Of a stretch of DNA of 64,000 nt, positions 2,010 to 52,623 are shown piece after piece. Origin of the DNA: Spizellomyces punctatus DAOM BR117 (Eukaryota); NCBI GenBank assembly GCA_000182565.2, contig KQ257450.1, one strand, 5' to 3'. The translations under genes and the position numbers were made by a program. The notes under the pieces were generated by a model that ran no database searches, was not told the origin of the DNA, and was given only the letters and a program-made list of their open reading frames with translations. Each line of letters starts with the position of its first letter. Position 1 is the stretch's first letter.

Positions 2010-2945
2010 ATTCGTAAATCAGCTTTATTTGTTGAATACATTGAGAGATTATACGACCAGTTGAGCAGACTACCATGAATGCGCTTTGAGATCGGTGAAA
2101 ATGTACGAAAGTTCCTAGCACAAGCTCACCATCGAGCGCCTGGAAAAAGCCAAGGTTGGGCGGTCTTTAGAAGACTTACCATATGCTCATGGTTTATTTG
2201 GGGTGTAATGTGGCCTAGATGGGTAGCTCACAATGATAGTGGAACCGTTTCAAATAAATCAGACATTACCCTTGATACTTGAAACATCATCTGCCCATTC
2301 AAATGCGAAATCAAACTGTTTAAGATGCACTGGCTCGTCCTCTTTCCAATGGTCAGCCCCCAGATACGGATGCGCCAGAGCTTCCAGGACCGTGATGCCT
2401 TTGACGGCTGAAAAAGAAACCTTTTCAACACCATTGTTCTCTAAGAGGAGCCACCGAGAATTGACCTCGGGACCTACATAGTGCGATACCACTGATACTC
2501 ACTATTTAGTGAATACATTGACAAGATTATATCACAAGTTGAGCGGAAGGACTATCATGAACGCGTTTTGAGACAAGAGCTAGGACAAATGTTCACCGTT
2601 GGGCTGAGGTGAACACGATTCGAGACAGTGACCCTGAGAAAAACTAAATCCGAGTAAACTGCTTTTATTTAATAAATAGATTGACAAGATAGTACCACAA
2701 GTTTAGCAGAGGACTAACATGGATGCGCTTCAAGACCGTTCAGAAACAGCAAAGTTTCTAGGACCATCTTACCATTGACGTTGCGAGACGGACAAAACTG
2801 AGAAAAACTAAATCCGAATAAACTGCTGTATTCAATGAATACATTGACAAGATAATATCAAAAACACATTGAGCAGAGGACTAACGTGGATACCTTTGAA
2901 GACCGCAAAGTTTCTATGACAGTCTCACCATTGAATTACTGTGAA
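2010..2945. repeat. Degenerate ~160-bp repeat, 4 copies; copies 1 and 2 are separated by a MAPK fragment
   Basis: (g)aata(c/g)attga.a.gat.....gtt(g)agc.ga..act...(a/g)tg.a..c..tt recurs at ~2033, ~2511, ~2675 and ~2838. Confidence 0.6.
2262..2430 (-). pseudogene. MAP kinase C-terminal fragment (subdomain XI + CD region), frameshifted
   Basis: LKRFLFQPSK / ITVLEALAHPYLGADHWKEDEPVHLKQFDFAFEWADDVSSIK resembles the MAPK motif RITxxEALAHPY...DEP...FDFxFE; no other kinase subdomains are visible nearby. Confidence 0.7.
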
Positions 2946-3040
2946 CACGGTGCAGAGATGGCGTGGAATACCTGTGGCCCCTGTTCTCGTCCGTTAATTA
3001 TGGGCTTTGATTTTAACGAGATATCAAGTGACAAATCGTA

Positions 3041-3220
3041 TCACTCCTACACTGTTAATCGCCGGGCACCTTTTATGGCACACTGCAACTGAGATTGAAA
3101 CCATGCACTTACCGTGACTGAGAAGATGTGAGCAGTGACTGCGAGCATTTTGATAGAGTAAATCCATTACAATCATTACCTAGATTTTGAGGTGGCCGAT
3201 GATAAACAGTGTAGGAGTGG
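3041..3220. mobile_element. MITE, ~180 bp, with ~20-bp TIRs and TA flanks (Tc1/mariner-like)
   Basis: Left end TA|tcactcctacactgttaatc, right end gataaacagtgtaggagtgg|TA; a homologous segment lies inverted at 39570-39680. Confidence 0.7.
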
Positions 3221-3339
3221 TACATCCAAGTTGGAAATGAAATGATTGGACATGAGTTGTTCCTGAGGGTCGGCTCTGGACGAGTTACGAGAGATATAGT
3301 GTACAATTATTTTTCCTGGGTACGACCGACTTTTACTTT

Positions 3340-3450
3340 TCCTATCCCAACTATATATGAATGTACGTTATCTCTTTAGTACGGTATATTTCCTATCCTA
3401 ACTATATATGAATATACGTTATCTTTCTTTTTAGTACGGTATATTTCCCA
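3340..3450. repeat. Direct tandem duplication, ~51 bp x2
   Basis: ttcctatcc.aactatatatgaat.tacgttatct..tttagtacggtatatttcc occurs twice. Confidence 0.8.
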
Positions 3451-47980: not shown

Positions 47981-49532
47981 ATGTCTAGAGCCCGTCCTTT
48001 GAACCCAAAGCCCATATTTGACGAGGAGCTAGTCCTTGAAGCATTCAGGAAAAACAAGATCAAAGAGTCCAATGCTGCTAAACTTTGGCGTTACCTTATA
48101 CAGCAACCCGAGAAAACTATAGACGAGATTCCCGACTTCCCAAAAGCGGCGAGAAAGCTAATTGATGATGAGTTTGTGATAACGACGTCAAAAGTAATAT
48201 CTCGCACCGATGCAAAGGATGGTAGTACGACAAAGCTACTGATAGAGCTACAGGACGGGCAGCGGGTGGAAAGTGTAATCATGCGTTATGGAGAGGTTGA
48301 ACTGGACTGTTTTCCAGAAGAGGAGGAGAGAAGGAAGAGGCGACGGAGGGAAGGGAATGGAGAAGATGGAGAGGAAATACTGGAGTTTCGATCGAATAAA
48401 CGAGCCACGTTGTGCGTTTCGTCTCAAGTAGGGTGTGCCATGGGGTGTACATTTTGTGCAACAGGAACGATGGGACTTCTTTCAAACTTGGCAGCTGGTG
48501 AGATTATCGAGCAGCTCTATCATGCGAACAAGATTGAGAAAATCCGAAATATAGGTTGGCGCAGTCATTTCTCTCCTTATGATGCTACAACTCATTTTAT
48601 TGACGAATTCTCCTGATTAAGTGTTCATGGGTATGGGAGAGCCACTCGACAATTATAATGCAGTCATGGCAGCCGTCCGAGCCATGGTTGATACTGGCCG
48701 GTTTGGCCTTGCCCCTTCAAGGATATCTGTCTCGACCGTAGGAGTCGTACCTAGAATCCATAGTCTGATCAAGGATGCTCCCAACATAGGCCTGGCGCTT
48801 TCCTTGCATGCACCAAACCAGACCCTTCGCCAGCAAATTGTTCCTACCGCCAAAGCTTGGCATGTGGATAGAATACTTTCCGCTTGTGACGCGTTCATAG
48901 ATCACCAGAACGGGTTGATCAAATCTACGAATCGGCGTCGCCATATTCTTGTTGAATATGTCTTAATCAGGGACGTCAATGACTCCCAAGAAACCGCCCA
49001 CGAATTAGGCCAACTGCTGAAGGGGCGACATGTTCTCTTGAACGTCATTCCATATAATCCAACATCAGTACCGCATGATTACAAGACTCCGAATAGAGAA
49101 GACAGTCGTCGCTTCGTGGAGACGGTGCGGGAATACGGCGTTCATACTCTCTTGCGTCAAACCCTAGGAGCAGATGCAGCCAGTGCTTGCGGTCAGCTAG
49201 TCATTGATAATGGCGGACAAAAGACCAGCGGACAGTGTGGGGACGATAAGGGCACAGGAAATGGAGTCGCCGATCTGGAAGATTTGCTACAGAATACTGG
49301 AGCTGGTAAAAATGGAGTAAAAGTATCCATCAAGTATCGCAAGAAAGCCCCGTCACTCGCCACTCCTACTGGTGTGGAACGAAATCCTCTGGACACACTC
49401 CAATCTGGCACGGCAGCTCTTACCAAGAGAAGGTCACGGCTGAAGGTGGCAACATTGTGTGCTTTATGTATATTATTTGCTGTGGTGCTGGGTAGGGTAG
49501 TCCTAAGATCTCTGGGTTTGGCAACTGTATAG
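47981..49532 (+). CDS. RlmN/Cfr-family radical SAM RNA methyltransferase with C-terminal hydrophobic tail; 2 exons
   Basis: [37 protein letters not shown] (CxxxCxxC), [31 protein letters not shown]. Confidence 0.9.
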
Positions 49533-49743
49533 CATAGAAGATATATTTGCATTATTTCATTTGTAACATAGGCGTGGATAATGAGGGGATGTCTTCTGGA
49601 AAGGAGAATGGGATTTGGAATTACAGGAAGATTTACATAGTGCGGAGCCGATGGGTATTGGCACTAGTACATAGATTCCAACCAATTTAATCATAATTTT
49701 ACTCGATTTAGACTCATGAACTGTGGTTTGATCCAAAAAATCC

Positions 49744-49750
49744 TATATAA
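49744..49750 (+). promoter_or_regulatory. Putative TATA box for the Fanzor ORF
   Basis: TATATAA ~75 bp upstream of the ATG at 49822, inside the element. Confidence 0.4.
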
Positions 49751-49821
49751 GTCATCGTGCCCATTTTCCCAGGCTTTCGTCTTTTTCAGATATCATCAAT
49801 GCCACAGATACAGATATCATC

Positions 49822-51688
49822 ATGCCGCCAAAGAAAAAGCAAAAACTCGAAAAACTCGACAAACCCACCTTACATACCTGCAACAAAACTTCCTTTGCAA
49901 AAGCTTTCCTGCCAAACTACCACCAACGGCTTCTAGATTACATCGCCATCATCCATCAACTTGCCGACCACGCTTCCCACGCTCTCAAATTCTACATCCT
50001 ATCTGCACCATCCTTCACCGTGAACGAGGAGACCATCGAAGCGATTCTCTATCTTCTCAACAAGGGGGAGGCTTGGCATCCAAGAAAGGAAGCAAAGAAG
50101 GCATGGCAGGATTGTTTGCTGCCATATGTTCAACAGTACTGCCAAATCGTCGGCTTCGTTCACCCAAATCTACGAGGCGAGCAGCAATCAGTCAATTACC
50201 TGACAGCGAGTATGATGATGAACCTAAAAGTCAACGTTCAAGAGCATTTCATGCAGATGCTCCTTCAGTATATCAATCTGCAGCTCGATGTGAAGAGACA
50301 GAAGCAACTGCCACTGAAAAGCGATGCACAGAAAGCTTTCTTTACTCGACTATGCTATTTGAAGTCAGTTTTCCTTTTCGAAACCATGCCAGAATCGCTG
50401 GATGACTTGAGCATTCTTGAAAATGAGATTTTTAGAAGAGATCTGGACACTTAACCTGCCATTTCCTGATCAAGACAAGCCACTTGCCTACCTCATTGCC
50501 ATTGACGCGATGTCCTTCTTGCCTGCTTACTGTCGGTTGTCAAGCCTATATGAAAAGCATGGATTTCAACGGTTCAGTGCCATCCCACTTCGCTGCTCCC
50601 TCATCCAAAGCCATATTCGCATCGACACGGTCATTCTCTACGCCCACATCCTCTGCATCACCCGCCAAGGAGCAGAAGCTGTAGAGAAGGTCGATTTATG
50701 GTTGCGTGTCTGTAATCTGCGGAACAAGGCTTTTAGATCTCGCCGCGGTATGCAGTTTGAAGGCTCGATCACAACGGATGGAACCTCAGTGTCTGTATAC
50801 CTAAAGCACCCAGAAGCAGACAAGTATGGAAAGCGCGGAGCGAGAAAGTCAGCAAAGAGTTTAGAGGACGAAGTTAAAGTGCAATACATGGAGAAAAACT
50901 TACCTGCTTGTCGAGCAGCAGAGAATGTCGTTGTTATCGACCCAAACAAGCGCAATATTCTCTACTGCCAAGACAACAGTGGTGTGACATTTCGCTACAC
51001 CGCCAACCAGCGAGCCATGGAGACTGGAAGCCATCGATTTGCAAAAGAACGGCAGCAGATGAAGAAGGAAGCGGGAATTGACCTCATAGAATCATATATC
51101 CCTAGTCACAAGACAATGAACCTCATGGACTTCATGCGCTATCTCCTCGTTTGCCATCATGCAGATTCGGATTGTCGCAAGGAATTCTACTCCCACCCTG
51201 CCCACACGCGATGGAAATGGCACTCCTTCATCAATCAGCAGCAAAGTGAATCAAACCTCATATCCAACTTGTGCAACAAATACGGTGAAAACTTTACCAT
51301 TGTGATGGGTGATTGGAGCGATGCCGGTCGAACTGCAAGATTTCAGACCTCATCAAAGACAAAAGGTTGGCGCACCCTCTTTAAGCGCAACAGGATCAAC
51401 TGCTTCCTTCTTGACGAGTATAAAACCTCATCTGTCTGCCCTCACTGTTCCTCTGGCATTGAAAAAGGCTTCAAAACACGACCTCATTCAAGACCTTGGC
51501 GCCGTCGCGAAGGCAAGATTGAAAAAGTCCATGGATTGCTGGGTTGTACCAACCCTAACTGTCAGCAAGCCTGGACGATGCGCTACTGGAATCGAGATAC
51601 ACTGAGCACCTGCAACATGCTGATGATCGTGCAATCAATGTTGGATGGACATGGTAGATCAGAAGTGTTCAGCCTGTTCCAGCCGTAG
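49822..51688 (+). pseudogene. Fz1: Fanzor1 (eukaryotic TnpB-like RNA-guided RuvC endonuclease, SpuFz1-like), split by a +1 frameshift at ~50429-50433
   Basis: NLS-like MPPKKKQK; ITTDGTSVSV; RuvC-I VVIDPN (D at 50939); IVMGDWS; RuvC-II LLDEYKTSSVCPHC (E at 51416); CTNPNC zinc finger; RuvC-III WNRD (D at 51596); intronless; joins to ~620 aa if one T is removed. Confidence 0.93.
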
Positions 51689-51702
51689 CGTAGCGTAGAT
51701 TA

Positions 51703-51792
51703 GTTTTTCCGAACCGGTTGTCGCCGGTTTATTCCCTGGTGCGGGTGCTAGTGCCAATACCCATTGGCTCCGCACTATTTTGAGTTACCCTT
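51703..51792 (+). ncRNA. Predicted Fanzor omegaRNA: ~75-nt scaffold (51703-51777) plus ~15-nt flank-derived guide
   Basis: Follows the ORF and overlaps the right TIR; hairpins aaccgg/ccggtt (51712-51729) and tggtgcgg..gctagtg/cattggc.ccgcacta; layout matches the SpuFz1 omegaRNA as I recall it. Confidence 0.8.
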
Positions 51793-51918
51793 TTGGATTC
51801 ACCGTACTTCATATGCTTTGGAGGCCAACTTTGGTGTCACGTGAATATACAAGCTCCGTATGTTGTTTGTTGCGACAATTTGGTAGATTCATAACTCATC
51901 GTTAGATCGACACCAATA

Positions 51919-52623
51919 ATGGAACCTATAAACAGCGTGGAGTCAGTAGACGATCCCTACCTGTTATACCCCGAACTTGCCATCGCCACACCTCCAACCT
52001 CACGCATTAGACGGCTTGTCGCTTACGACTGGGCAAACGGCTTTGTTAGCCCATTCAGAGAAACCCCAACCGACGTATGCACGTCATTGGCAGAATACCT
52101 CCGCCTTCACTCTCTAGTTTCTGCTAGAGATAGCTTGTTGGACTTGGGATGCGGGAATGGAGCTTTGCTTTTTGGTGTGGTGAAAGCTCTTGGCCCTGTG
52201 GCGACCTCTTGTTCCCTGGTGGGTCTGGATCTCGACCTAACGTTGGTTGAGGAAGCTGCCAAAACAGCGACAGGGGATGCGATTATACGCAATCAACGAG
52301 TTCAGTTGTTTGTGGGAGATATTGTGAGCCGCAATCCTGTTTCTCAGGTGCATCCACGTTTGAGATCAAACATCGATGGCATCTCCATGGTGTCGACAAC
52401 AACCACTGTTGATACCCTCCTAGATGATGCTTCAGTAATACTGCTATATCTATTACCAGAAGCAATAGGAAAGCTTTTGCCGAGTCTTCGTCATCAAATC
52501 CATCTTGGCAAGTTGGTTGTAAGCATTAAATGGCCATTAACATCTCCGGATTTGGATCTCTCCGAGTTCCTCTGCACACATCAGGATGGATATCTGGTTT
52601 ACAGACGTAGCATTAAGGCTTAA
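51919..52623 (+). CDS. Class I SAM-dependent methyltransferase (FAM173-like), intronless
   Basis: SPFRETP, LLDLGCGNG (motif I), VGLDLD, VILLYLLP, VVSIKWPL. Confidence 0.75.
   Translation: MEPINSVESVDDPYLLYPELAIATPPTSRIRRLVAYDWANGFVSPFRETPTDVCTSLAEYLRLHSLVSARDSLLDLGCGNGALLFGVVKALGPVATSCSLVGLDLDLTLVEEAAKTATGDAIIRNQRVQLFVGDIVSRNPVSQVHPRLRSNIDGISMVSTTTTVDTLLDDASVILLYLLPEAIGKLLPSLRHQIHLGKLVVSIKWPLTSPDLDLSEFLCTHQDGYLVYRRSIKA

Follow-up and report, generated by a model that had tools for sequence, protein, structure and literature searches.

A copy of the SPu-1 transposon in the chytrid fungus Spizellomyces punctatus carries, behind a broken nuclease gene, a short stretch of DNA that folds into two hairpins. 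Is this stretch the gene for the scaffold of an omegaRNA, and could a copy in such a state still put that RNA to use? The copy occupies positions 49638–51777 (2,140 bp) of the 64-kb stretch of DNA that we analysed (the window), between a radical-SAM-like open reading frame (ORF; 48621–49532) and a methyltransferase-like ORF (51919–52623). Its left terminal inverted repeat (49638–49667, plus strand, 30 nt, with pairing that reaches 49670) and its right terminal inverted repeat (51748–51777, minus strand) pair with one mismatch over 30 nt and show 94% complementarity at 34 nt. The 30-nt repeat pattern matched the window twice, at the two ends of the element (0 matches expected from 100 shuffles), and the 64-kb window therefore holds one SPu-1 copy and no further copies or ghost elements. 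With a slash marking the edge of the element, the junctions read ...TTTACA/TAGTGCGG... on the left and ...CCGCACTA/TTTTGAG... on the right, with TA at both element ends and CA before the left repeat (CA/TA...TA/). The letters across the left junction, CATA (49636–49639, plus strand), are made up of the conserved CA (49636–49637) and the terminal or duplicated TA, and are identical to the published TAM of SpuFz1.

The element at 49638–51777 has the features of an SPu-1 transposon, namely a length of about 2.1 kb, 30–33-bp repeats, TA ends and the preceding CA. In their description of SPu-1, Bao and Jurka (2013, Mob DNA; PMC3627910) present it as the prototype Fanzor1 element, about 2,100 bp long, encoding about 633 aa in one ORF, with putative TA duplications and with terminal inverted repeats of some 33 bp, and the window copy resembles theirs in its length of about 2,100 bp, its repeats of about 33 bp and the TA at both ends. 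They counted 17 full-length copies with intact ORFs in nine; the copy at 49638–51777 falls in the class without an intact ORF. Their description differs from the present one in proposing a methyltransferase role, which predates the discovery of the RNA. The account of these elements by Saito et al. (2023, Nature; PMC10432273) counts 42 loci at which a Fanzor gene is present in full or in part, alongside 134 'ghost' elements that have no ORF, describes the CA as conserved upstream of the 5' repeat, and states that the transposase for SPu-1 is not known. With one copy in the window, the terminal TA is here a putative target-site duplication (TSD).

The Fanzor1 gene of this copy is split. An uninterrupted ORF of about 630–640 aa was not found in the element, which has instead two ORFs in different frames of the plus strand: an N-terminal piece of 210 aa (49822–50454) that starts MPPKKKQK, and a C-terminal piece of 423 aa (50417–51688) covering part of REC, WED, RuvC and the zinc-finger nuclease lobe. 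Residues 4–420 of the latter aligned with residues 607–1026 of SpuFz1 (PDB 8GKH, 8gkh_P; 85% identity, E 1.5e-233), with a further match to Parasitella Fanzor 1 (PpFz1, 9cf0_P; E 8.5e-43), and eight of the best ten protein hits after its own product in a large protein collection were from S. punctatus DAOM BR117. A Pfam search of both ORF pieces returned no significant family, and the identity of the element is therefore taken from the PDB sequence search; Fanzor homologues of the window protein carry precomputed PF26935. The alignments place the window protein among Fanzor1 proteins (SpuFz1 clade) over WED, RuvC and the zinc-finger lobe, at 82–86% identity to its sister paralogues. One of these, P0005 (638 aa), has the correct residue at each checked published SpuFz1 position, so we identify it with the characterised SpuFz1.

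Two lesions account for the split reading. At the first (50429–50433, plus strand), there are five T where the paralogue frame requires four: the 210-aa piece can be aligned with the SpuFz1 paralogues from residue 1 to about residue 220 and then runs out of frame, reading ...LENEI at the frame exit where five paralogues read LEEIW. An intron was considered as an explanation for the change of frame and rejected, as the paralogues, which have one T fewer, are read without interruption. This lesion is taken from the assembly sequence, in which an error is possible; the contigs over 50429 in two contig sets (one in X1 and one in X3) are one letter short, and because they carry other differences they probably represent paralogues. 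The second lesion (51660–51693, plus strand) involves the paralogue tail VPAVA-stop, which lies in another frame from that of the 423-aa ORF, and we therefore place the lesion near 51660–51670. The initial annotation had located the hairpins after the stop codon, and they do lie 3' of the stop that this copy uses (51686–51688); that stop is not the ancestral one, which is at 51691–51693.

Beyond its frame lesions, the window copy has private changes in 43 of 534 columns (those in which four or more of the other five sequences share a residue), and 13 of these replace R with Q, C, H or W, against 23–44 private changes with 2–5 of that kind in each of the five paralogues. The four RuvC metal-binding residues (D383, N385, E541 and D606) and all six TAM-reading residues are kept. 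Four conserved nucleic-acid contacts, R157, R268, R414 and R481, are lost, all of which are kept in P0005 and the four paralogues compared. To judge by its sequence, this SPu-1 copy is decayed, with a broken nuclease gene in which the catalytic residues remain. Furthermore, 28 of 40 listed variant sites are A or T here and G or C in sister reads or contigs, with 9 showing the reverse, a bias that, together with the 13 arginine replacements, would fit a GC-to-AT decay signature across 49638–51777 of the kind left by cytosine deamination (C to T).

The right end of the element has a fold that its left end lacks. The 75 nt at 51703–51777 (plus strand) are predicted to form a 5' single strand, two hairpins and a 6-nt linker, which we read as an omegaRNA scaffold: an 8-nt 5' single strand that includes UCC at 51708–51710, stem-loop 1 at 51711–51730 (core AACCGG/UUGUCG/CCGGUU at 51712–51729), the linker AUUCCC at 51731–51736, and a 41-nt stem 2 at 51737–51777 with an 8-nt loop at 51754–51761, all on the plus strand. 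In stem 2, TGGTGCGG(G).GCTAGTG (51737–51753) pairs with CATTGGC(T)CCGCACTA (51762–51777), so the right terminal inverted repeat provides its distal part and 3' arm, and in the predicted fold U35–A75 and G36–U74 close the stem using the terminal TA. The minimum-energy fold of 51703–51777 coincides with the centroid and reaches −32.4 kcal/mol (z −4.25), with an equally good fold in 1 of 200 shuffles; together with its flanks (51689–51795) the region folds at −37.6 (z −3.75). Both the short hairpin and the long hairpin built with the right repeat, as the initial annotation had drawn them, are thus present.

The mirrored left end (49638–49712, minus strand) folds at −9.4 (z +0.45), with 129 of 200 shuffles equally good, and the mirror of the 41-nt stem 2 reaches −6.5 against −21.6 for stem 2 itself. 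The reason for this specificity is that the repeat includes neither stem-loop 1 nor the 5' arm of stem 2 (UGGUGCGG). The suggestion that the left end lacks the internal pairing arm therefore stands as regards the fold, with the qualification that the repeat's own 6-bp self-pairing (UAGUGC/GCACUA) forms at the left end too. The minus strand of the scaffold also folds (−25.1, z −2.71), because the complement of any hairpin folds. A 37-nt scaffold core matched the window once at up to three mismatches. A search of 49000–52500 against Rfam gave no match at E ≤ 1, and the scaffold receives no automatic annotation because it has no Rfam family.

An RNA of this description is in print for the same element family in the same genome. 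Using small RNA-seq at four loci, Saito et al. report an 88–90-nt RNA that extends 14–15 nt into the variable flank and co-purifies with SpuFz1 in an RNP pull-down; they further describe RNA-guided in vitro cleavage of double-stranded DNA beside the TAM 5'-CATA, abolished by any single change to the TAM, and a 2.7 Å cryo-EM structure (8GKH) showing a scaffold of 75 nt (two stems with a linker) together with a 15-nt guide (PMC10432273). The fold at the right end and its reading as an omegaRNA module were thus already published for SPu-1 in 2023. The figures that the initial annotation gave (75 nt of scaffold, about 90 nt of RNA, about 15 nt of flank) equal the published ones, its placing of an omegaRNA scaffold in the right end is borne out by homology to the sister copies, and its guide read from the flank, different for each insertion, is what was described for those copies (PMC10432273). 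Binding and use by the Fanzor1 protein are likewise published for sister copies (PMC10432273) and would extend to this locus by homology.

We compared the window scaffold with the 18 nucleotides named in the published description (U5, C6, C7, U16–G20, G22, A29, C32, C34, U35, G37, C40, G70, A72 and A75; PMC10432273), and not with the full published RNA sequence. Seventeen of the 18 match if the offset shifts by one between nt 20 and nt 29, and 12 or 9 match with a single offset (nt 1 at 51703 or at 51704, respectively). The sole mismatch is G22, which is C in the window copy. This pattern would fit a window copy that is 1 nt shorter in the 3' half of stem-loop 1. The linker (A29–C34), U35, G37, C40, G70, A72 and A75 fall at their places in the predicted fold. 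A further paper on the SpuFz1 omegaRNA of Spu-1 (SPu-1) is that of Xu et al. (2024, Cell; PMC11423790).

The window scaffold shares with the SpuFz1 omegaRNA its genome, its element family, its position from stop codon to right repeat and its 75-nt length; the two stems, the 6-nt linker, the 8-nt loop of stem 2 and the 17 of 18 named nucleotides are also common to both, as are the CA before the left repeat, a TAM-compatible junction and a guide predicted to be read from the flank. It differs in belonging to another paralogue (82–86% protein identity) whose ORF is broken, in the C at G22 and in the 1-nt length difference in stem-loop 1. According to Saito et al., an 8-nt loop separates canonical from ghost RNAs, and the ORF-less ghost elements yield working omegaRNAs in trans (PMC10432273). 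Like a ghost Spu-1, the window copy has a right-end omegaRNA module that would need protein in trans. Unlike the ghosts, which as described there are about 550 nt long and ORF-less, differ at seven repeat positions and have a 3-nt bulge for the 8-nt loop, it is full length and has the canonical 8-nt loop.

Parallels also extend to the omegaRNA (reRNA) of TnpB in IS200/IS605 elements such as ISDra2, which likewise is read out of the 3' end of the nuclease gene, across the right end and on into the flanking DNA, with a TAM that equals the transposon target motif at the left end and with cutting of the empty site. Unlike that RNA, the Fanzor1 RNA as described lies entirely 3' of the stop codon, lacks a pseudoknot and contains the 3' TA in its scaffold, and the Fanzor1 element has inverted repeats and no known transposase (PMC10432273, PMC13565253). 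In the terms of a 2026 review, the TAM as read includes the 5' TSD, and the 3' TSD forms part of the scaffold (PMC13565253).

The 5' part of the scaffold recurs in distant relatives. One metagenome scan gave 19 loci, eight of them with 44–55% protein identity, and five of the eight (L002, L003, L005, L006 and L008) had enough 3' flank, L002 and L003 being identical there. All five distinct sequences, that of the window included, have a stop codon, a U-rich run ending in UCC and then a 5–7-bp hairpin; the loops in this set are UUGUCG, UUCACG or AUGACG(C) (WU[GC][AU]CG type), and the stem letters vary by locus. RNAfold alone predicts the stem-loop 1 hairpin in four of the five, the arbitrary 120-nt stretch taken at L006 folding otherwise. 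In a model-fitted alignment of the five sequences, 74.3% of stem 1 cells pair compared with 55.9% in shuffles (matched by 0 of 500), and five of seven pairs changed on both sides (31 of 500 shuffles); covariation for these five sequences in the fitted alignment was 0.671 compared with 0.286 when shuffled (0 of 500), and 0.600 with a +1 slide. Such apparently compensatory change of stem 1 in uncultured relatives is supportive, not decisive. The conserved UCC and loop G agree with the published C6–G20 contact (PMC10432273). A covariance model (R1) gave six matches in 141,119 bases, which are its source sequences and the L003 duplicate.

Stem 2 was comparable with L008 only, whose stem 2 is longer and closed by the same UGGUGCG/CGCACUA; the L008 element has CATA at its left junction and a right end reading ...CGCACTA. 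This locus (L008:2844–3417) contains a 572-nt, internally deleted relative (2846–3417) with a left repeat at 2849–2874, which keeps the last ~144 Fanzor codons followed by UCC, stem-loop 1 and a long stem 2, and which by its make-up appears to be a ghost-like element in an uncultured relative. Three other relatives of about 46–50% protein identity (L002:4326–4434, L003:2600–2708 and L005:2808–2896) have an extra hairpin that follows stem-loop 1 and precedes the terminal stem, and their right ends read AATACTA. Neither a repeat search nor local alignment found left repeats of L002, L003 and L005 on their contigs, so their right boundary (...AATACTA) is only a guess.

We next turn to the RNA reads. 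X22 is an RNA run with the same species label, of raw reads up to 60 nt, of which about 6 in 100 were read; it is not documented as a small-RNA library. Its first mates covered the 3' end of the upstream plus-strand gene (bins 49400–49581) at a depth of 9–23 on the plus strand and 0 on the minus strand, and because that gene is covered only so, a first mate on the plus strand means sense. Mean depth in the bin 51675–51765 was 11,982 with the first mate on the plus strand and 25.8 on the minus strand, and the pile is therefore on the strand of the predicted RNA. The preceding bin (51584–51674) stood at 38 and the following one (51766–51856) at 4.87, with nothing beyond 51857.

By the letters they carry, the reads in this large plus-strand pile are from sister loci. 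Of 30,706 placed reads, a partial fit is seen in 30,490 and a likeness of just 90–95% in 22,405, and plus-strand reads have C in 9,592 of 11,317 at 51704 and in 6,326 of 6,425 at 51699; at 51704 and 51765 the sister reads mostly have C where the window copy has T. Reads diverge from the window copy before 51705, 51700 and 51695 (12,827, 4,019 and 5,966 reads, respectively) and after 51741 (10,782 reads). These data show that abundant, strand-specific RNAs have stem-loop 1 and the linker in common and that the similarity between copies starts near 51695–51705; RNAs of ghost elements probably make up most of the pile on 51705–51741. Plus-strand depth at 51765 was 40, with the paralogue letter in 28, and coverage of the junction and the guide (51778–51792) was not demonstrable in X22; the mean depth of 4.87 in 51766–51856 is explicable by reads stopping near 51777. 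No begin or end places of RNA were called from this run.

The other runs are in part contig-only sets, which cannot show RNA ends. A possible RNA run (X24) has one 87-nt contig of the sister type (51700–51741, three differences). Contigs that bridge flank and repeat without a difference cover 49400–49663 (X1 and X3) and 51735–52100 (X1), and these may be the assembly's own source. After 51741, the commonest X22 RNA with stem-loop 1 and the linker follows a consensus (10,782 reads, agreement 0.74) unlike the main continuation in X3 and X24, which resembles a ghost form that bears the repeat; expression may be dominated by a single sister locus or by a few. Over the 5' part of the element (49673–50036), X22 reads lie mainly on the opposite strand (first mate on minus 72–215, on plus 1–83), which suggests antisense transcription across the 5' region of SPu-1 copies, with reads that are mostly, it is probable, from paralogues.

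Together, our results make us highly confident that 51703–51777 is the omegaRNA scaffold gene of an SPu-1 Fanzor1 element. How far the gene is alive at this locus is a separate matter. The scaffold may be intact simply by descent in a dead relic, with the copy silent or its RNA unused and the 'guide' mere flank, and we regard this as a substantial possibility, if a little short of an even chance. The two frame lesions, the 13 private arginine replacements against 2–5 per paralogue in five, and the loss of four conserved contact arginines all speak for a relic, as do the lack of positive read evidence for the junction and guide in X22, with a depth of 40 at 51765 (28 of the paralogue type) and of 4.87 in 51766–51856, and the precedent of intact ORFs in just nine of the 17 full-length copies counted by Bao and Jurka (PMC3627910). 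What a relic explains less readily is that the full fold and 17 of the 18 named nucleotides have been kept and that the listed differences within the scaffold (51704 and 51765) fall outside the reported protein-contact parts, with 148 further differences beyond those listed. Ghost elements without any ORF are moreover described as giving working omegaRNAs in trans (PMC10432273), and X22 was sampled at about 6 in 100 and is not documented as small RNA.

It is very improbable that the hairpins are instead a DNA-level feature of the transposon end, such as a transposase site, or the 3' UTR or terminator of the Fanzor mRNA. In favour of this reading, the inverted repeat supplies the 3' arm of stem 2 and has to serve transposition as well, and the minus strand folds too (z −2.71); yet the left end lacks stem-loop 1 and the 5' arm that stem 2 has, both of which are outside the repeat, the strand-specific pile begins near 51695–51705 and not with the ORF (38 rising to 11,982 between bins), and the RNA of sister copies is reported to have been sequenced, co-purified with the protein and seen at 2.7 Å (PMC10432273). 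A chance fold beside the repeat, unrelated to Fanzor biology, has only the general ease of finding hairpins in its favour and can be rejected with near certainty, given the z of −4.25 with 1 of 200 shuffles as good, the recurrence of the 5' module after the stop codon in relatives of 44–55% protein identity, and the nucleotide-by-nucleotide match to the published RNA.

Taking 51703–51777 as an omegaRNA scaffold gene, we can set out how its RNA would work. As shown for the sister copies, a plus-strand RNA of about 90 nt begins about 10 nt past the Fanzor stop, crosses the right repeat, the final two letters of which (UA) close stem 2, and then reaches 14–15 nt into the flank. The parts bound by the Fanzor1 protein are the 5' UCC, stem-loop 1, the linker and the base of stem 2; the 3' end, which comes from the flank, pairs with DNA beside 5'-CATA, and the cut is made by the RuvC site. 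At the window locus, the published 14–15-nt extension predicts a 15-nt guide at 51778–51792 (plus strand), TTTTGAGTTACCCTT, from the host flank between the element and the methyltransferase-like ORF; as RNA it would read UUUUGAGUUACCCUU. This guide has one exact match in the window, and three other matches with 2–3 mismatches are at chance level. It starts with UUUU (51778–51781) directly after the scaffold, which could stop transcription before the guide if RNA polymerase III makes the RNA.

If one TA were kept, the empty site would have the sequence CA-TA-TTTTGAGTTACCCTT, a TAM followed by the target, and the RNA would thus direct cutting of the unoccupied allele, with repair copying the element back. 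In the occupied locus the guide-matching target follows the four bases ACTA, which would spare the element from being cut. For this locus the homing step would need the TA to be a target-site duplication, which is putative in the published account of SPu-1 (PMC3627910). As the nuclease gene is broken, the RNA would depend for any action on protein made by intact paralogues, and trans-supplied protein is the role proposed in print for ORF-less ghost elements (PMC10432273). That the omegaRNA of this broken copy is still made and loaded in trans onto a paralogue Fanzor, which would cut the empty allele at CATA followed by TTTTGAGTTACCCTT, is a tentative proposal that we consider possible but rather doubtful.

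The RNA, its structure, the guide rule and the TAM were published in 2023 (PMC10432273), and the link between TSD and TAM has since been reviewed (PMC13565253); added here are the decay of the window copy, the sister origin of its RNA pile and the stem-loop 1 changes in relatives. The locus illustrates that inference from sequence by itself can recover a real RNA-guided system, and the result can be used to annotate correctly a decayed SPu-1 copy with an intact guide module. If the trans-acting proposal were true, a dead nuclease gene would be held in place by its relatives' enzyme, and full-length pseudogene copies together with ghosts would form a shared guide pool that parasitises a few coding copies. 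The native role of Fanzor is called unknown in the account of Saito et al. (PMC10432273), and a supply of guides in trans by broken copies would bear on the part that Fanzor plays for its transposon in the native host.
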